From: a virus | Lineage: Duplodnaviria > Caudoviricetes | Virus record (IMG/VR): IMGVR_UViG_3300032007_001727 | Strand: one strand, 5' to 3' | DNA length: 64,000 nucleotides | The notes under the pieces: generated by a model | What the model was told of the DNA's origin: nothing | The model's database searches: none | The model's input: only the letters and a program-made list of their open reading frames with translations | Shown here: one piece after another, positions 50,832-63,428 of the stretch | How positions within the stretch are numbered: the stretch's first letter is position 1 | Layout: each line of letters opens with the position of its first letter | Translations under genes and position numbers: made by a program

Positions 50832-53039
50832 ATGGCAAAAATCAATGATGATTTACTGAAATATTTTGATGGCGATGAAATGGCATCAAATGTTTGGCTG
50901 AATAAATATGCAATGAGGGATGAAAACGGTGAATTAATAGAATCGACCCCGGATGACATGCATAGAAGAATGGCAAAGTACTTTGCCGATGTTGAGGAAA
51001 AGTATGAGTTTAACGAAGAGGAAAACGTTAAACTGAAATTGAGTGAATATGGCTACAACAGAGGCAAACTTACCGAAGAAAAAATCTATTCTCTTTTCAA
51101 GGACTTTAAATATATTGTTCCGGGCGGTTCTGTCATGTGTGGTTTAGGCTCACCGCTAGCAATTAGCCTCTCTAATTGCTGGGTAATTGATGGTCCAGGT
51201 GACAGTATAGATGACATCTTTAGGGTTTGCAATGAACAGTCTCAGTTGTTTAAGAGAAGAGGTGGAAACGGGTTCGATATATCGAAGTTGAGACCAAAGG
51301 GTGCGAAGGTAAGCAATTCTGCAAAATATTCCACCGGTGCCGTATCCTTCATGGACTTGTTCAGCAACGTGACAAATACCATCGCCCAAAGCGGAAGAAG
51401 GGGTGCCCTTATGCTTTCAATGCACGTGGAACATCCGGATGCGGAGGAGTTTATTGAGAAGAAGCAAGACCTTTCAAAGGTTACCGGTGCAAATATCTCG
51501 TTGCAGATAGGTGATGACTTTATGAATGCCGTGGAGAATGATGAGGACTTTATTCAGAGGTGGCCAATCACTTGTGAGGTCAACGTTGACCCTAGTTGGG
51601 AATATGACACCTTGTACGAGTCCAAGGATTCGAACGGTAAGACTTGCTATTTCAAGAAGGTAAAGGCGAAGAGGTTGTGGGATAAATTAATCCATTGTGC
51701 TTGGAATACGGCCGAACCCGGCATCATCTTCAAGACAAACCACTATGAATATTCACCGGACGGTGTGTATGATGAATTCCGTGGCAGTTCCACGAATCCG
51801 TGTGGAGAGATTTTTATGCATGAGGATTCTTGCAGACTCATCCACGTAAACCTTTCTTCTTTTATTGATGACGAGTATTCTGAGAATGCAAAGGTGAACG
51901 ACGAGAAGTTGTATGAAGTGTTCTATGAGGCCACTAGGTTAGGTGATGATTTGGTTGATTTGGAAAGGGATGCCATTACAAAGATTCTCAATAAGATTGA
52001 AAAAGACGGTGACAAGAATAATAATGAATATAAACTGTATAGCCGCTTACTTAAGAATACATTAGCCGGAAGAAGGTGCGGCGTTGGATTCTTCGGATTG
52101 GCTGACGCTGTCGCAAAATTGGGCTTTAAGTTTGATTCTGATGAGAGCCTTAAGGCAATTAACCATATGATGAGGATTATGTTCGTTGCAGAAATTGACT
52201 CAGAGATTGACATGTCAATCACAAGGGGTAGTTTCCCGAACTATAATCCGGAATTGGAGAAGGCCGGAAACAGATGGTATAACCACTTGAAGGATGATTT
52301 CAAGCACTTATACGACAGAATGATGAAATATGGCAGGAGAAACGTATCATTCAGTACGGCAGCACCTACCGGTTCTGTTGCGATGCTTGCACACTGCTCT
52401 AGCGGTATAGAACCCATATTTATGCCATTCTACACAAGGAGGGTTAAATGCACGACACCAAACGACAAGGTTGACTTTGTTGACAAGGACGGTGAGAAGT
52501 TCACGGAATATATTACGGTACACCATCCTTTGGAAGAGTGGGCAAAGAACACATTGAACGTCGATACAAGCGAATTGAAGGTAAAGGATTGGCAAGACAT
52601 ATATGAGAAGTCACCTTGGTATAAGTCAACCGCAAACGATATCGATTGGGTAAAACGTGTTAAAATCCAAGCAATATGCCAGTGCTATGTGACACATAGC
52701 ATTTCTAGTTGCGTTGTTAAAGATACATTCATTGAACTTGAAAATGGCGGCTACGCATATATTGATGAGTTATGTGACTTTTCAGCCATAAACGAAGGGG
52801 AATTTAAGGATAACACATCGTTTGAAACATTGGTTAAGACTTGTGACGGAACTAATAATAGGATTAAGTCATTCTACAATAACGGAGTAAAAGATGTGTT
52901 TGAGTTAAAACTTACGAATGGGTTATCAGTCGAGACCACGTCAAATGAACGTTTCATGGTCTATAACGATGAAAAATCAGAATTTGATTGGAAATATCTT
53001 TATGATATTAAAGAGGGTGACATAATAAAAATTCAATAA
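50832..53039 (+). CDS. nrdJ: Class II (B12-dependent) ribonucleotide reductase, N-terminal part fused to a split N-intein
   Basis: LSNCWV, RRGG.G.D.S.LRP, RRGALM, TNPCGE, APTGS..M...SSGIEP; extein ends HSISS, then intein Cys1 at 52710. Confidence 0.92.
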   Translation: MAKINDDLLKYFDGDEMASNVWLNKYAMRDENGELIESTPDDMHRRMAKYFADVEEKYEFNEEENVKLKLSEYGYNRGKLTEEKIYSLFKDFKYIVPGGSVMCGLGSPLAISLSNCWVIDGPGDSIDDIFRVCNEQSQLFKRRGGNGFDISKLRPKGAKVSNSAKYSTGAVSFMDLFSNVTNTIAQSGRRGALMLSMHVEHPDAEEFIEKKQDLSKVTGANISLQIGDDFMNAVENDEDFIQRWPITCEVNVDPSWEYDTLYESKDSNGKTCYFKKVKAKRLWDKLIHCAWNTAEPGIIFKTNHYEYSPDGVYDEFRGSSTNPCGEIFMHEDSCRLIHVNLSSFIDDEYSENAKVNDEKLYEVFYEATRLGDDLVDLERDAITKILNKIEKDGDKNNNEYKLYSRLLKNTLAGRRCGVGFFGLADAVAKLGFKFDSDESLKAINHMMRIMFVAEIDSEIDMSITRGSFPNYNPELEKAGNRWYNHLKDDFKHLYDRMMKYGRRNVSFSTAAPTGSVAMLAHCSSGIEPIFMPFYTRRVKCTTPNDKVDFVDKDGEKFTEYITVHHPLEEWAKNTLNVDTSELKVKDWQDIYEKSPWYKSTANDIDWVKRVKIQAICQCYVTHSISSCVVKDTFIELENGGYAYIDELCDFSAINEGEFKDNTSFETLVKTCDGTNNRIKSFYNNGVKDVFELKLTNGLSVETTSNERFMVYNDEKSEFDWKYLYDIKEGDIIKIQ
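52710..53039 (+). other. Split intein N-fragment (109 aa)
   Basis: Block A CVVKDTFI, NGVKDVFELKLTNG, block B TTSNERF, end DIKEGDII then stop. Confidence 0.85.
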
Positions 53040-53112
53040 TTCTTTAAAAAAATTTATCTCATTGTATATTTATATATATAAATAATTTTAATAAATATGC
53101 AATGAGATAAAT

Positions 53113-54339
53113 ATGAATGAAAGTCAGAAAAAGAGGATACAAAAACTAATAGAAATGGGTTTGTATCATGAGCCAAAAATAATAAAGGGCGTATGTAAAT
53201 TATGTGGAAAGGAATATGAATATGACGAGAACAATAAAGTAGTTAGACAATACTTTACTAACGGCTTTTGTTGCAATAAATGTTATCAAGATTCCGGTTT
53301 AAAGTTAATTAATAAAATTAAAACGACACTGACGAATGCAAATATGCCGTTTAATGATGAAAACATCTTAGAAGTTTTTTCAGAGTATCAATCAAATAGA
53401 ACTAAAAAGTGTGCTGACACTTGGAGGAAGACAATGGTTGAGAAATATGGAACAGACTATGCCACCAAGAGAGGAAAAATGGGATGGGATGGCCACAAGA
53501 AGAAATTTTTAATTGAAAACAACATAATTTCAGAAGATGATTTTTCAAAATTAAGTGAGGAGGAAATTGATGACTTATTTATTAGTAACTTCAACAAAAT
53601 AACCAAACATGGTGAACACGTTGTTAATGGTAGAAAAAGTAAATACGGAGAAGATTACAAGAAATCATTCCAAGATGCACTAGTAAAAAGCGTAACCAAC
53701 CTAATGGAGAAGAAATACGGGAAAGAATATTTAGATGGACTATCTGATTCTGAATACCAAGAGGTTTACAATGAATGTTCAACTGAAATAAATTCGAAGA
53801 AGGTTGTAAAGGATAGAATTGAATGGAAGAAGAGTACATTGTTGAACCACGGCTTCGATAAAGATTCATTGGACAAATGCAGTTCAGATGAAATTGAAAA
53901 GTTCTATTCAGAATATTTGTCAAAGAGAAAGACAAAACTTGTTTGTTCCGAAAAGAATGGGTATAAACATTCTGAAAAGGGTTGGTACAATTTTGATAAG
54001 TGGGATAAGTTTTTCTACCGTAGTAGTTGGGAAAAGCGATTATGTGAAGAATTGGACGCTAATTGTGATTTAATTGAAAATGTCATGGTTCCGGAACCAA
54101 TCTATTATAAGTTAAATGGTGTTACACATGCCTATTTTTGTGACTTTGAAATTTTATTTAAAAATGGTTTCAGACTATTCATAGAAGTCAAACCGGAAGG
54201 AAAATTAAAAGAATTAGTAAATGAGTGTAAAATAAATGCGGCAAAGGAAAAATGGGGTGACTCATTTATTGTTGCAACTGAGCATGAAATTTTTTCAAGT
54301 GATTTAAAAAATTTATTAATGAAATATGGAAAAGATTAA
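53113..54339 (+). CDS. Free-standing putative homing endonuclease (TnsA-like PD-(D/E)XK domain) between the nrdJ halves
   Basis: N-terminal CKLCG..FCCNKC Zn finger, repeated EKYG motifs, C-terminal YRSSWE...EP..Y....H.Y..DF...IEVKP. Confidence 0.75.
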   Translation: MNESQKKRIQKLIEMGLYHEPKIIKGVCKLCGKEYEYDENNKVVRQYFTNGFCCNKCYQDSGLKLINKIKTTLTNANMPFNDENILEVFSEYQSNRTKKCADTWRKTMVEKYGTDYATKRGKMGWDGHKKKFLIENNIISEDDFSKLSEEEIDDLFISNFNKITKHGEHVVNGRKSKYGEDYKKSFQDALVKSVTNLMEKKYGKEYLDGLSDSEYQEVYNECSTEINSKKVVKDRIEWKKSTLLNHGFDKDSLDKCSSDEIEKFYSEYLSKRKTKLVCSEKNGYKHSEKGWYNFDKWDKFFYRSSWEKRLCEELDANCDLIENVMVPEPIYYKLNGVTHAYFCDFEILFKNGFRLFIEVKPEGKLKELVNECKINAAKEKWGDSFIVATEHEIFSSDLKNLLMKYGKD

Positions 54340-55348
54340 AGAAATTGAGTCTATTTGTCTAAGTGATGAAAGAATACCGTTTGAATTTAGAAAAAATGGT
54401 GACTCTGTGAAAGATTTTCTTGAAACCATTAAGAACAATGGTTTTGTTGTGACGAACAAGGATGTTAAAAGACTCATGAAAATGTATGACACAAAAAACG
54501 AAACATTTTCAATTGTTGAAAACATTTCTTATGTTGGGGTGAAGGAAACCGTTGATTTGGAGGTTGAAAATACTCATAGTTATGTAGCAAATGGAATAGT
54601 TGCCCATAATACAATAAATCTTCCGAACGACGTGAAAGAAAGCGAGGTGGCGGAAATATATAGGGAATCTTGGAAACAAGGACTTAAGGGTATTACCGTA
54701 TATAGGGATGGATGCAGAAGCGGTGTCTTTGTATCAGTTGACAAGAAGGACACACCGAAGAAGGACTTGAACCTTGAACTCATCGAGAGCGGTACCGCAA
54801 AGAGGAGGCCAAAGACATTGGAGGCCAAGATTATACGCTTCAGCAACAAGGGTGAAAAATGGGTAGGCATAATAGGAATGCTAGACGGAAAACCGTATGA
54901 ACTCTTCACCGGAATGCTTGATAAACTGAATATCCCGAATTGGGTTGACAACGGTTCCATCATCAAGAACTATGATGAGATTGAGACTGACGGTGAAGTG
55001 AAGAAGAAATCACGATACGATTTCTGCTATAATGACAAGGACGGGTATAAGGTATGTATCGAAGGTATATCTAGGATATTTAACCCCGAGTTTTGGAATT
55101 ACGGCAAACTAATCAGCGGCTTGTTAAGGCATAATATGCCCATACCTTATATAATAAAGGTGATTTCAACCCTTAAGTTGGATGATTCCTCCATAAACAC
55201 TTGGAAGAACGGTGTTGTTAGGGTTCTCAGAAAGTTTGAAGACTCTGCTGAATTGGAGGGTGAAAAATGCCCGGAATGTGGTGGAAGGCTAGTTAGGGAC
55301 GGCGGATGCATTCACTGCGTTGACTGCGGATACAGTAAGTGTTTATAA
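54326..55348 (+). CDS. nrdJ: Split C-intein fused to the NrdJ C-terminal part
   Basis: Blocks F/G TVDLEVENTHSYVANGIVAHN ending at 54610, then TINLP...LKGITVYRDGCR, RPKTL, C-terminal Zn ribbon CPECG...C..CGYSKC. Confidence 0.9.
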   Translation: MEKIKEIESICLSDERIPFEFRKNGDSVKDFLETIKNNGFVVTNKDVKRLMKMYDTKNETFSIVENISYVGVKETVDLEVENTHSYVANGIVAHNTINLPNDVKESEVAEIYRESWKQGLKGITVYRDGCRSGVFVSVDKKDTPKKDLNLELIESGTAKRRPKTLEAKIIRFSNKGEKWVGIIGMLDGKPYELFTGMLDKLNIPNWVDNGSIIKNYDEIETDGEVKKKSRYDFCYNDKDGYKVCIEGISRIFNPEFWNYGKLISGLLRHNMPIPYIIKVISTLKLDDSSINTWKNGVVRVLRKFEDSAELEGEKCPECGGRLVRDGGCIHCVDCGYSKCL

Positions 55349-56737: not shown

Positions 56738-56769
56738 TTTGTTTTTTTCAAATTTTTTATATATCTTTG
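56738..56769 (+). promoter_or_regulatory. Bacteroidota-type promoter driving the RNA-array-effector unit
   Basis: TTTG at 56738, TATCTTTG at 56762, 20-nt spacing. Confidence 0.75.
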
Positions 56770-56770
56770 C

Positions 56771-56954
56771 ACCGTTAGTATTAAAACACTAGCCTACCCA
56801 CAGTGTAAGTGGGGACGTTAAGTCCGCGTACTAGGCTGTTGAGGAGTGCTTTAGTGAAAGTATCTTTCTCACGTCTAGGTTTAAACGGAAAGAAAATGTG
56901 CAAGCAGGACTTGCGCAACCATTATTAAAATTTAGTGGAAACATTTGATACAAC
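56771..56954 (+). ncRNA. Putative structured scaffold RNA (tracr/omegaRNA-like)
   Basis: Non-coding and GC-richer than other intergenic regions; stems AGCCTA/TAGGCT, CCCAC/GTGGG, GGAC/GTCC, GTGCTTT/AAAGTAT, GTGCAAG/CTTGCGC, CCATTA/TAGTGG; ends in repeat-like TACAAC. Confidence 0.55.
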
Positions 56955-56985
56955 TTATTGATTGTCATTCAATTACGTGTGGTGT

Positions 56986-57454
56986 GGTGTTAATTCCACT
57001 TATCTTAAGGTGGGTTACAACTACATCCCAATACTTTACTACGTGAACTTGGTGTTAATTCCACTGATTGTAAAGTGGATTACAACCTTAGAGAGGAATA
57101 ATAAAAATCCAAAGAAGGTGTTAATTCCACTGATTGTAAGGTGGATTACAACCAACTCCCAAAGAAAATACACAAAAAGTTTGGTCTTAATACCACTTAT
57201 TTTAAGGTGGATTACAACACATGAATTAAGTTCATAGATGGTGTTAATTCCACTCATCTTAAAGTGGATTACAACAATCTAAATGAATATCAACACCCGT
57301 GAAAATGGTGTTAATTCCACTGATTTTAAGGTGGATTACAACCTACCTATCACTCAGAATCAAGTGTTAATTCCACTGATTGTAAGGTGGATTACAACTG
57401 TCATTGGGAATTGCCGGTGTTAATTTCACTTATCTTAAAGTGGATTAATACAAC
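56986..57454 (+). CRISPR. CRISPR array: 8 repeats (consensus GGTGTTAATTCCACTGATTGTAAGGTGGATTACAAC, 36 nt) and 7 spacers
   Basis: Repeats start at 56986, 57051, 57117, 57183, 57240, 57307, 57363, 57416 (last one degenerate, 39 nt); unique spacers of 29, 30, 30, 21, 31, 20, 17 nt. Confidence 0.92.
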
Positions 57455-57490
57455 AATGTATTTGAGTTACAACAAATTAGATTGTCAAAT

Positions 57491-58993
57491 ATGACAAAAG
57501 AAAAAATCTTACGTGGTATTAAATACCGCTTTTTTCCAACGGAAAAACAAAAAACATACATTAACGCTATGTTTGGTGCAAAACGTTTTTTTTATAATAA
57601 AACGTTAGAAACCTATTTGTCCCTTGAAAAAGAGAACCGTGAAATAAAAGAGTATAATAGCACCCATGAGGATAAGAAGGAACCAATTGCGTATTCTTTG
57701 TTATTAAACAACGGAAAACCAAACCCAAACTATAGCAAAAACTCTCTAATACAAAGGGGATTTGATGGCTTTTATGGTGAAGTAAAAGATTATTCTTGGC
57801 TAAAGAATTATTCATCTACCATATATCAAAATGAGATTGCTAATTTGGGTAATTCTTGGAAGACTTTCTTTAAGTCCCTAAAGACGAAAAATAAAGTAGG
57901 AAAGCCTAAAATGAAAAGAAGGAATTCGGTTAATTCCATAACCTTGCAGAACACATCTTCCTTGAAGGACGGTAAGAATATTATGGATTGGAAGAATAGC
58001 CGAATAAAAACCCCGGGTTTTAATAAATTGGGTTGGTGCAAATGTGAATTGCACAGAAGATTCAAAGGCATGGTCAAGGAGACAACAATATCTAAGGATA
58101 TTGATGGTTCATACTATATTTCCCTAATAGTTGAGAGTGAAGGCTCATACCCACAGCCTAGCGGTGAAGTCACAAAGGAAAATACTATAGGTATTGATTT
58201 TGGCCTAAAGACACTTGCTACCATTTCCAATGCAAACGATGATAGCAATAACTATGAAAAGATTGTTCCATCATATTTTGCAAAGGTATGTGATTTGGAG
58301 AAAAAAATCAATAGGCTCAAGGCAAAGAGAACTCTATGTCAAGCAACACTGACAAGGGAGGGGTGTGAATCCAAGGTCTTAACCATAAAGCAGATGGATA
58401 AGGCTAGAACCAACAATAAAAGGGCTTTCAGTGGATACCATATCACCTATTCAAAAGGTTATGAGGAATATACCAAGAGGATAAACAAACTTACGGTCAG
58501 AATCAATAACATTAAGAAAAACTACACTGGTGAGGAGGCAAGTTCGATTGTAAATCGTGATTGTGCCAATGCAATCTGCGTTGAAACCCTTGATATAAGG
58601 GGCATGTCCATAAGAAATAAGACAAGGGAGGCCGAAGGCAAGAAGATTCCAAATAAAGTCAAAAGGAGAAGGAAAATGGCCCATAAATTAGGACAATTGG
58701 CCATCGGTAGTATAATCTCTCAAATAGAATATGACTCCATAAAGGCAGGAAAACACTTTATAAAGGCCCCGGCAAACTATGCTTCCACAAAGATTTGCAA
58801 TTGCTGTGGTCATAAACTTGAAGACATTGGACTAGATGTTCGGAAATGGGTTTGTCCGGTTTGTGGACAAGAGCATGACCGTGATGTAAATGCCGCAAAA
58901 AATTTGGCAAAGTATGCCTATGCCTTAAAGAATGACATCGATTTGAAGGATATTTACCACAAAGTTGAGGCTGAGGTAATGGCTGAACGATAA
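57491..58993 (+). CDS. CRISPR-associated TnpB-like RuvC nuclease (candidate miniature type V effector, 500 aa)
   Basis: N-terminal TnpB HTH GIKYRFFPTEKQK...FGAKRFFYN; RuvC-I IGIDFG, RuvC-II ICVETL, Zn finger CNCCG..CPVCG, RuvC-III HDRDVNAAKNL; starts 36 nt after the array. Confidence 0.85.
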   Translation: MTKEKILRGIKYRFFPTEKQKTYINAMFGAKRFFYNKTLETYLSLEKENREIKEYNSTHEDKKEPIAYSLLLNNGKPNPNYSKNSLIQRGFDGFYGEVKDYSWLKNYSSTIYQNEIANLGNSWKTFFKSLKTKNKVGKPKMKRRNSVNSITLQNTSSLKDGKNIMDWKNSRIKTPGFNKLGWCKCELHRRFKGMVKETTISKDIDGSYYISLIVESEGSYPQPSGEVTKENTIGIDFGLKTLATISNANDDSNNYEKIVPSYFAKVCDLEKKINRLKAKRTLCQATLTREGCESKVLTIKQMDKARTNNKRAFSGYHITYSKGYEEYTKRINKLTVRINNIKKNYTGEEASSIVNRDCANAICVETLDIRGMSIRNKTREAEGKKIPNKVKRRRKMAHKLGQLAIGSIISQIEYDSIKAGKHFIKAPANYASTKICNCCGHKLEDIGLDVRKWVCPVCGQEHDRDVNAAKNLAKYAYALKNDIDLKDIYHKVEAEVMAER

Positions 58994-61787: not shown

Positions 61788-63428
61788 ATGCTTATTCAGA
61801 GTAAGTACACAAAGATATTCCATTCAAAGGACTTAACTCGTCAGAAATATGATGAGTTATATGACTTTGCTGTGCTTATTCGAAACCATAAAAACACAGT
61901 ATCACAATACGTCAACGACAATCTCTTACATTTCTTGGAATACAATAAATTTCAATTCCTTAAGGAAATGAGAGAACGTTTCAAGAATGTAATACCAAGT
62001 TCATTTGATGCACAACTCTATACACAAGTATTCACTTGCTATCAGAATAAATTTGATGGAATACAACGCAAACTGATATTTGAAGTAAAAACATTTAAAG
62101 GGTTTGAGTTCTACAAGCGTGATACAAAGAAGAATAAGAAAGGTGACTTAAAGAAAGTAATAGCCGAAAAGAAACAAACACCATTATCTAACTGCCTCAC
62201 TTATCTTGCAAGATACGGAAATGAAAACACAATAGACTATATAAGTAGTAATATAGATGTTTGTGATGAGAAGAAACGTGAGTTCTATAACAACATATTA
62301 AGATGCTGTAATAAATTCGGATTTGAACGGTTGTATCGATTAGCATTGAACAAAAGACAACGTGTTGTTAAGCATTATTCTGAATATCCTATTGAATTCA
62401 AGTCATTAACGTTCAATGGTAGGTGTAGGAAGAAAAGGATAATTGACTACAACAGAAAGTTTGACTCTGTTATCAATTCATTCATAAGCCTTAGTGGTAT
62501 TGGACGTAAATCATTTGATATACCGATTACATTCAACAAAGGTTGGCACGGAAATATGAAGGATTACAGAAAGAAGAATCCCGATTACGAATATACAATC
62601 ACTTTCAATGAGAAAGAACATCAAGTAAACATCCATTTATGCAAGGATGGAGAAAGGTATATTCCCCAAGCCAATGGCAATACAATAGGTATTGATGTCA
62701 ATTGCAAGCATAACTTATTCAGCCTATCAAATGAAGCAACTTACGATTATGATAGAAAACTCGTCAATGATTTCTGTAAATTATCACTTGAAATTGACAA
62801 ACTTAAAGAAAATGATAAAGAATACAAGGTCGGTAAGCGTAAACAGCAGAAACTTGATACTCTCAAATCCAAGATGATTAAGTCTGAGCAGCAACTTATT
62901 GCTGATATGTGCAAGACGTTACAATCGCAAGGTGTTGGGCATATTGTGATGGAAGACCTTGATAATGGTTTCGGTAAGTGCTATGTTAAAGACAAGGATA
63001 ATGAGGATATTAATTACAACAGAAAGGTTAAGTTTCTTGGCTTGAGTAGTCTTAAACAAGAAGTTGAGCATATTGCAAGAAAATATGATATTGCGGTTTC
63101 AACTGTTCAAGCAAGTTATACATCGAAGATGTGTCCTATGTGTGGATGTATTGAGGATGAGAACAGACCAAACCAAGAGACTTTTGAGTGTATTAAATGT
63201 GGACATAAAGATAATGCAGACTTTAATGCTGCAAAGAACATAAGGAACAGAGTGCTCGTAACCGTGTTACAAGATTTGCTCTTAAAACAAAAGGATAATG
63301 GTGCTTTTGAGCCTAAGAAACTTAAACGTGAGAAGGTAAAGGAGGTATTGTTATCGTTTCGAAGAAGCCTACAAAATGTAGGAAGTGAATGTACAGAAAG
63401 TAGTGTGACTACTTTTGACTATGTTTAA
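61788..63428 (+). CDS. tnpB: TnpB RNA-guided nuclease (IS607-associated, 546 aa)
   Basis: IGIDVN, IVMEDL, YTSKMCPMCG...FECIKCG, NADFNAAKNI. Confidence 0.9.
   Translation: MLIQSKYTKIFHSKDLTRQKYDELYDFAVLIRNHKNTVSQYVNDNLLHFLEYNKFQFLKEMRERFKNVIPSSFDAQLYTQVFTCYQNKFDGIQRKLIFEVKTFKGFEFYKRDTKKNKKGDLKKVIAEKKQTPLSNCLTYLARYGNENTIDYISSNIDVCDEKKREFYNNILRCCNKFGFERLYRLALNKRQRVVKHYSEYPIEFKSLTFNGRCRKKRIIDYNRKFDSVINSFISLSGIGRKSFDIPITFNKGWHGNMKDYRKKNPDYEYTITFNEKEHQVNIHLCKDGERYIPQANGNTIGIDVNCKHNLFSLSNEATYDYDRKLVNDFCKLSLEIDKLKENDKEYKVGKRKQQKLDTLKSKMIKSEQQLIADMCKTLQSQGVGHIVMEDLDNGFGKCYVKDKDNEDINYNRKVKFLGLSSLKQEVEHIARKYDIAVSTVQASYTSKMCPMCGCIEDENRPNQETFECIKCGHKDNADFNAAKNIRNRVLVTVLQDLLLKQKDNGAFEPKKLKREKVKEVLLSFRRSLQNVGSECTESSVTTFDYV

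Follow-up and report, generated by a model that had tools for sequence, protein, structure and literature searches.

We consider it probable that the repeats in this 64,000-nucleotide stretch of phage DNA (hereafter, the window) serve as guide array to a type V-like CRISPR system that derives from TnpB, is carried by the phage, and has no adaptation genes, and that they came to resemble type VI-B repeats through a shared reliance on host Cas1–Cas2. In the proposed mechanism, a standard phage promoter gives rise to one transcript that combines a scaffold RNA of ~160 nt with the array, as seen at the level of RNA contigs. The tail of the scaffold, being complementary to the repeats, would join each repeat–spacer unit to a 500-aa RuvC nuclease, and this nuclease would cut DNA that matches the spacer and adjoins a short motif, the likeliest targets being rival phages or other mobile DNA. 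A comparison of strains suggests that spacers enter at the scaffold-proximal end. Host Cas1–Cas2 probably inserts them in trans, since neither cas1 nor cas2 was found in the 64-kb window, which covers only part of a larger phage genome. Dependence on host Cas1–Cas2 would explain why repeat length (36 nt), repeat ends (of GTTGT...ACAAC type), and spacer length (30 nt) are like those of host Cas13b arrays. Cas13b arrays likewise rely on foreign Cas1–Cas2, with Cas1–Cas2 setting repeat length, repeat ends, and spacer length, and this shared dependence is the most economical reason for the VI-B likeness.

Phage context and features of the locus

The remainder of the window is phage DNA, encoding a tail sheath, a baseplate hub, a UvsX-like recombinase, a DnaB-type helicase, and a ribonucleotide reductase. 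The public runs that contain the stretch are bovine gut metagenomes, and the source is a cattle-rumen jumbo phage. The features of the locus are collected in Table 1. Four copies of the repeat consensus occur in the window at no more than three mismatches, compared with none in 100 shuffles of the window.

Table 1 Features of the array locus in the window
Feature	Position	Strand	Description
Promoter-like element with TATCTTTG	56752–56771	+	20-mer recurring in the window
Copies of the 20-mer	24662, 37811, 40469, 44756, 48340, 56752, 60973	+	
Structured non-coding RNA, tracrRNA-/omegaRNA-like scaffold	56787–56948	+	Homology, covariation, RNA contigs
Scaffold tail: anti-repeat and degenerate repeat copy ("repeat 0")	56918–56952	+	
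Spacer-sized stretch	56955–56985	+	31 nt, between scaffold tail and repeat 1
CRISPR array	56986–57454	+	8 direct repeats and 7 spacers
Starts of R1 to R7	56986, 57051, 57117, 57183, 57240, 57307, 57363	+	36 nt each
R8	57416–57454	+	39 nt, degenerate, 3-nt insertion
Effector gene (P0001)	57491–58993	+	500-aa TnpB-family RNA-guided nuclease; Pfam, NCBIfam, fold

A TnpB-like effector beside the array

The effector gene begins 36 nt downstream of the array. Its product matches the Pfam models HTH_OrfB_IS605 and Cas12f1-like_TNB and scores 199 bits against the NCBIfam guided_TnpB model NF040570, for which the cut-off is 100; it reaches 181 bits against the IS200_TnpB "exception" model, under the cut-off of 425. 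The RuvC residues D236, E365, and D465 and the zinc-finger residues C436, C439, C455, and C458 do not vary among 11 relatives. When the predicted effector model (mean pLDDT 78.6) was compared with solved structures, ISDra2 and ISFba1 TnpB appeared as the best fold matches, followed by Cas12f, Fanzor2, LaTranC, and Cas12p. A PDB profile search returned the same order, with 1e-41 for ISDra2 TnpB and 1e-27 for LaTranC. The locus shows the traits by which type V-like and TranC systems are recognized, namely an intact D-E-D triad and zinc finger beside an array, a clade-wide association with arrays, and a scaffold complementary to the repeats. The effector is predicted to carry out RNA-guided, PAM-dependent DNA cleavage.

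Among 1.84 billion cluster representatives, three to four score above 280 bits to the effector and the next one lies at 207 bits, pointing to a tiny separate clade. The relatives are 45 to 58% identical and come from metagenome assemblies, one of them on a 423-kb contig with phage genes. IMG/VR scans for the effector and for the repeat gave no relatives, and no match was found among INPHARED phages at E 1e-5. Two IMG/VR matches to a scaffold motif both lay inside coding sequence and were set aside as chance, as were the INPHARED matches at E up to 10, which spanned repeat plus spacer. Profile scans of metagenome and genome contigs yielded ordinary TnpBs of at most 29% identity among the matches listed and say little on where the effector clade occurs.

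No TnpA was found among the neighboring window ORFs scanned with Pfam. In a related locus, L011, a 66-aa ORF at 1819–2019 matches a Y1 transposase (PF01797) directly downstream of the effector homologue P0008, possibly a remnant from an IS200/IS605 ancestry of the clade. A 346-aa protein (P0013) encoded on a 1.1-kb contig shares 70% identity with the effector over 29% of the effector's length and also has a phage-integrase domain (PF00589), which may reflect either a gene fusion or an error in gene calling. The window itself holds a second TnpB-like ORF at 61788–63428 (546 aa), with a Cas12f1-like TNB domain. Its identity to the array effector is 28%, in the C-terminal 74 residues only, and no copy of the array repeat lies nearby.

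A scaffold RNA and its pairing with the repeats

The promoter-like 20-mer, which ends in TATATCTTTGCA, has seven copies in the window, all on the + strand and with at most three mismatches. Its TATCTTTG fits TAnnTTTG, which we take to be the Bacteroidota −7 motif. The element also precedes the homologous RNA in the related loci L001, L002, and L010, and in L175 it stands before the effector gene. In the bovine metagenome runs, the promoter-like stretch has very high summed depth and many loose ends, indicating a repeated element.

The scaffold RNA that follows has homologues in L001, L010, L002, L176, and L175. In two helices, 8 of 11 predicted pairs carry compensatory changes. In the sister strain X3, the conserved part of the scaffold ends at 56948; beyond this point, 20 other letters replace 37 nt, so that the stretch before repeat 1 is variable. 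The scaffold tail pairs with repeat positions 1 to 29 (−20.6 kcal/mol). The cognate repeat was the best pairing partner of the tail in five of five loci, and of 120 permutations the true assignment alone gave the lowest energy. The duplex energy compared with shuffled repeats was not significant, a null result that counts against reading the repeats as a guide array. Complementarity of the tail by itself does not prove tracrRNA action, the tail being a degenerate copy of the repeat. Judged from sequence, the scaffold RNA would act in trans as a tracrRNA.

The same parts recur together in other loci. Promoter, ~200 nt of non-coding RNA with the scaffold, array of 36-nt repeats, and a TnpB-like gene of ~500 aa follow one another in the window, L001, L002/L003, L004–L009, and L010, and L011 has an array and then the gene on a contig that begins inside the array. 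In the more distant lineages L176/L177 and L175, the gene comes first, then the scaffold RNA and the array. Arrays are present in every locus with readable flanks (the window, L001, L002/L003, L004–L009, L010, L011, L175, and L176/L177), and the module is carried by at least seven independent related loci, made up of those with effectors 45 to 58% identical plus the two more distant lineages. Because the array is tied to the RNA and the effector across these loci, with cognate pairing, it is part of an RNA-and-effector module. Right after the array of L176 (5040–5160), the sequence resembles tRNA genes on the opposite strand, with GGATTCGAACC motifs.

Resemblance to type VI-B repeats

Smargon et al. 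(bioRxiv 10.1101/092577) define type VI-B repeats by a length of 36 nt, ends that are complementary (GUUG and CAAC), and an open loop of poly-U. In their account, Cas1 and Cas2 are missing from VI-B loci, and spacers of 30 nt are retained in the mature crRNAs. A comparison set was obtained by a pattern search of 401 genomes from the family of a Prevotella MAG. The arrays found there have a periodicity of 65 to 66 nt, and the two that were checked both adjoin Cas13b (NF038190), one of them also Csx28. Between seven repeats of the phage family and seven of the VI-B pattern, a mean of 19.1 of 36 positions (53%) is shared, compared with 20.1 of 36 within the phage family and 24.8 of 36 within the VI-B set. 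Over the inner 26 nt, identity between the two groups is 40% versus 28% after shuffling, and the predicted fold plan is the same. The closest pair sampled across the groups agrees at no more than 25 of 36 positions.

The ends and loops of the repeats were compared as well. The window repeat has GGUG...CAAC ends with a G-A mismatch at positions 2 and 35, L002 and L004 have GUUG...CAAC, and the GCUG...CAGC ends of L001 and L010 have co-varied as a pair. The window loops are U/A-rich (e.g., GAUUGUAA and UAUUUUAA); UUUU occurs in R4 and R6 only and is present in the relatives L001, L002, and L010. Scans with Pfam and NCBIfam found no Cas13b, Csx27, or Csx28 in the ORFs neighboring the window array; the same NCBIfam scan did pick up Cas13b next to each of the two control host arrays, and Csx28 next to one of them. 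The first-pass annotation had likened the repeats to those of VI-B arrays and proposed a check against host Prevotella arrays. The likeness holds, as the repeats share their 36-nt length, fold plan, and 53% of positions with Cas13b-linked arrays of that family. It is the likeness of a common repeat class (the Bacteroidota GTTGT...ACAAC class of 36 nt), not membership of a VI-B system.

One of these host genomes, G249, also has an array linked to Cas1–Cas2 (L198, 8153–10526). Its repeats are 47 nt long, begin and end with the same GTTGT...ACAAC, and are separated by spacers of 30 nt; in the 8 kb upstream of it no large + strand ORF such as Cas9 was found. Hoikkala et al. (2021, PMC8092290) showed that in Flavobacterium columnare II-C Cas1 brings about adaptation of a VI-B array in trans, and they found that the GTTGT motif is common to the II-C and VI-B repeats of different species.

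Could the resemblance instead be one of descent? If a TnpB-lineage ancestor had captured a host array of VI-B or related Bacteroidota type, with the scaffold adapting afterward, homology rather than convergence would link the two groups of repeats. This seems unlikely to us, while several of the above values do fit it: the repeats are nearly as close to VI-B repeats as to one another within the phage family, and the inner 26 nt exceed shuffled identity. In addition, the array lies upstream of the gene in most loci, whereas conserved Cas12 arrays are nearly always downstream (Altae-Tran et al. 2023, PMC10691335). Repeat likeness is also independent of effector phylogeny, which counts against the guide-array reading as well; a Mantel test of effector against repeat identity showed no correlation (r = −0.16), and the window repeat is closest to that of L176, whose effector is the most distant. 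However, in the deepest lineages, L176 and L175, the array lies downstream as is usual, together with homologous scaffold and repeats, and the scaffold tail copies the 3' two-thirds of the repeat, as expected if the array arose from a duplicated guide-RNA end. Moreover, such a capture would have to predate a clade with effectors only 35% identical, and the exact window repeat is absent from the genomes of 185,579 species. The last result also leaves the earlier suggestion of capture from a host system, taken as a recent event, unsupported, as does the fact that throughout the clade, in two gene orders, the array goes with an RNA that co-varies and an effector of TnpB type.

Repeat fold and variation

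Seven of the eight repeats share a fold with a terminal stem (pairs 3–5/32–34), a 6-bp inner stem (10–15/24–29), internal loops between them, and an A/U-rich hairpin loop of 8 nt. The fold is modestly stable (−8 to −9 kcal/mol, z −1.5 to −2.6), and G2 and A35 of the window repeat do not match, which leaves the end-to-end stem imperfect. No two of the eight repeats are identical, R3 and R7 differing at base 1 only. The description of bulged-hairpin repeats of 36 nt, all different, was thus borne out. Spacers measure 29, 30, 30, 21, 31, 20, and 17 nt in array order, which agrees with the ~30 nt given by the first-pass annotation for four of seven (29 to 31 nt, the three proximal ones among them) but not for three distal ones shortened to 17 to 21 nt.

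The repeats vary in the loop at columns 16, 19, and 20, in the stem with pairing kept through G-U at columns 11, 24, and 29, and in the stem with pairing broken at columns 4 and 10, both in R4; column 1 varies too. Counted as minimal events, 4 of 10 changes in the window array fall in the loop, which makes up 22% of positions (one-sided binomial p = 0.16). When seven homologous arrays were pooled, 10 of 30 events fell in loops, making up 19% of positions (p = 0.046). Stem changes in the pooled arrays kept the pair in eight cases and broke it in six, approximately what transitions alone would give. The variable sites had been described correctly, but the concentration of change in the loop is weak; calling the divergence loop-restricted was an overstatement, and the case it makes for selection on RNA structure is weak. 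Stronger evidence for structure comes from between loci, where all seven family repeats follow one fold plan with different stem sequences and the terminal pair 2–35 switches between C-G and U-A. RNAalifold gave no consensus structure on the ungapped repeat alignment because the inner stems are in different registers.

Variation of this kind raises the question of whether the array is a decaying relic that guides nothing, its repeat differences being neutral drift. The array looks worn, with eight repeats that all differ, three shortened distal spacers, and an insertion in the last repeat. These signs also count against the guide-array reading, and the 8 of 14 stem changes that keep pairing and the weak loop enrichment would fit drift. 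Decay nevertheless seems very unlikely. The effector is intact, catalytic residues included, none of the three proximal spacers is shortened, and spacers have changed recently among sister strains; in addition, the scaffold and array are abundant enough to assemble from RNA libraries from which the neighboring genes do not.

Expression and spacer turnover

Metatranscriptome contigs from two runs of one bovine sample match the window with 100% identity at 56787–57342, 56787–57172, and 57207–57357. The first two begin just after the promoter-like 20-mer and extend from 56787 into the array, so scaffold and array lie on one RNA. No RNA contigs on neighboring genes were found in the two runs, which was not counted as silence of those genes. 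The contig from run X11 ends in Illumina adapter right after the last base of repeat 6 (57342). This end, at the border of repeat 6 and spacer 6, may be a natural RNA end, as judged from a single contig, but cutting of a type V guide would be expected elsewhere, which is a further point against the guide-array reading. The other contig ends, 57172, 57207, and 57357, lie off the repeat–spacer borders.

A cut at 57342 is what Cas13b-type processing would leave, and the first-pass annotation had raised the idea that the array may also load or decoy host Cas13b, the transcript being processed and loaded as spacer–repeat units, so that the enzyme is either armed with phage guides or soaked up. We regard such dual use as highly improbable. 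The repeat class and the transcribed orientation (G-N-TGT...ACAAC) do match VI-B repeats read in the cas13b direction, and the adapter end adds a single weak hint. However, the remaining contig ends are not at borders, no repeat comes closer than 25 of 36 positions to any sampled VI-B repeat, and the window repeat has a G-A mismatch in its terminal stem and lacks a poly-U run. It is just as doubtful that two machines read the array, a TnpB-type nuclease taking repeat–spacer units and host Cas13b, met with repeats that mimic those of its own VI-B class, taking spacer–repeat units, with host Cas1–Cas2 refilling it; if this were true, the phage would redirect or saturate host RNA-targeting immunity.

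Spacer turnover could be followed in the sister strains X3 and X4, which come from DNA runs of other cattle studies (the effector-gene contig of X3 is ~3% different). Both share the nuclease-side units R4-S4-R5 and R6-R8 with the window, and on the scaffold side they have five other spacers of 27 to 30 nt. In L010, L002, and L176, the proximal repeats are identical, the distal ones are degenerate, and the spacers are 29 to 31 nt long. The comparison of strains, read from assembled contigs rather than raw reads as was expression, shows an array that appears to turn over with polarity, new spacers being placed at the scaffold-proximal (leader) end. The earlier suggestion that spacers are gained through host Cas1–Cas2 in trans is thereby supported in part. 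Gain by an array without its own adaptation genes is indicated indirectly, by the proximal spacer differences between strains and by the absence of cas1 and cas2 from the window, and the step in trans would be supplied by the host.

The spacers of all family members were compared with the window and all loci by blastn-short, which returned chance-level pieces only. Exact IMG/VR scans with three window spacers found nothing or, in one case, a single 20-nt match (L174), which was rejected as chance because the contig is GC-rich and its flanks do not match. No protospacers from which a PAM could be derived were found in the searches of the window, the family loci, IMG/VR, and INPHARED, which also counts against the guide-array reading.

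Relationship to known systems

The phage locus shares with VI-B arrays of Prevotella and other Bacteroidota the 36-nt repeats, ~30-nt spacers, ends of the GTTG(T)/(A)CAAC type, a hairpin at the center of the repeat whose arms are C-rich and G-rich and whose loop is rich in U and A, and the absence of cas1 and cas2 from the locus. It differs from them in lacking Cas13b, Csx27, and Csx28, in having a TnpB-type RuvC nuclease as the neighbor, and in the scaffold RNA that precedes the array. The window repeat further departs from VI-B repeats in starting with GGTG (hence the G-A mismatch) and in having no poly-U run, and the expected guide is a repeat followed by a spacer. As in the VI-B system of F. 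columnare (Hoikkala et al. 2021), the array has no Cas1–Cas2 of its own in the window, appears to gain 30-nt spacers at one end, and has the GTTGT-type end motif in common with a Cas1-linked array; unlike that system, it is phage-borne, and by analogy the donor machinery would be that of the host.

TnpB-like effectors of 400 to 600 aa with short arrays, 32- to 38-nt repeats, a transposon-RNA-derived tracrRNA, and no adaptation genes have been described as TranC (transposon–CRISPR intermediates), some members of which are found in phages, e.g., CauTranC9 from a Caudoviricetes genome (bioRxiv 10.64898/2026.03.27.714800). The window system is like TranC and type V-U in effector size, possession of an array, repeat length, lack of adaptation genes, phage home, and its matches to PDB 9jfo/9jfq, a likeness drawn from published descriptions at the level of the class rather than of a numbered group. 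Unlike LaTranC, the window effector is far nearer to ISDra2 TnpB (1e-41 versus 1e-27), and array and scaffold are upstream of the gene in most loci. Cas12p, the "Cas12 hacker," is likewise a phage-encoded miniature of type V, with 500 to 700 aa, a tracrRNA of ~185 nt, a 37-nt repeat, and a TnpB-guide-like scaffold (bioRxiv 10.1101/2025.01.20.633832). Phage origin, miniature effector, long scaffold RNA, and similar repeat length are common to both, whereas the structural match of the predicted model appears remote (9jfs, TM 0.5, 13% identity) and the Cas12p repeat ends in AAAC rather than ACAAC.

ISDra2 and ISFba1 TnpB, which act with an omegaRNA (reRNA), provide the closest solved fold and sequence family, with the same HTH, RuvC, and zinc-finger domains, and in L176 and L175 the guide RNA gene is downstream of the nuclease gene as it is in those elements. 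In contrast to them, the effector is ~90 to 100 residues longer and no TnpA or transposon ends were seen. A multi-spacer array takes the place of the single guide of IS200/IS605 TnpB, and in the window the RNA and the array lie upstream of the gene.

Miniature TnpB-like CRISPR systems are already on record from phages (Cas12p and TranC clades). What is new is the combination of VI-B-class repeats, spacer turnover without visible adaptation genes, and both gene orders in a small clade. If host Cas1–Cas2 fills the array, the phage would keep an adaptive, programmable weapon by parasitizing host immunity, and the adaptation machinery, not the effector, would shape the ends and length of the repeats. 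Being compact (500 aa and an RNA of ~160 nt), very near TnpB, and present in both gene orders, the clade would be a useful intermediate between single guide RNAs and arrays.

Elsewhere in the window, the large subunit of the ribonucleotide reductase (50832–55348) appears to be split by an intein. The ORF at 50832–53039 ends in the N-part of the intein, and the ORF at 54326–55348 consists of the C-part followed by the end of the reductase barrel. Between the two halves lies an ORF with a TnsA-like endonuclease domain (53113–54339).
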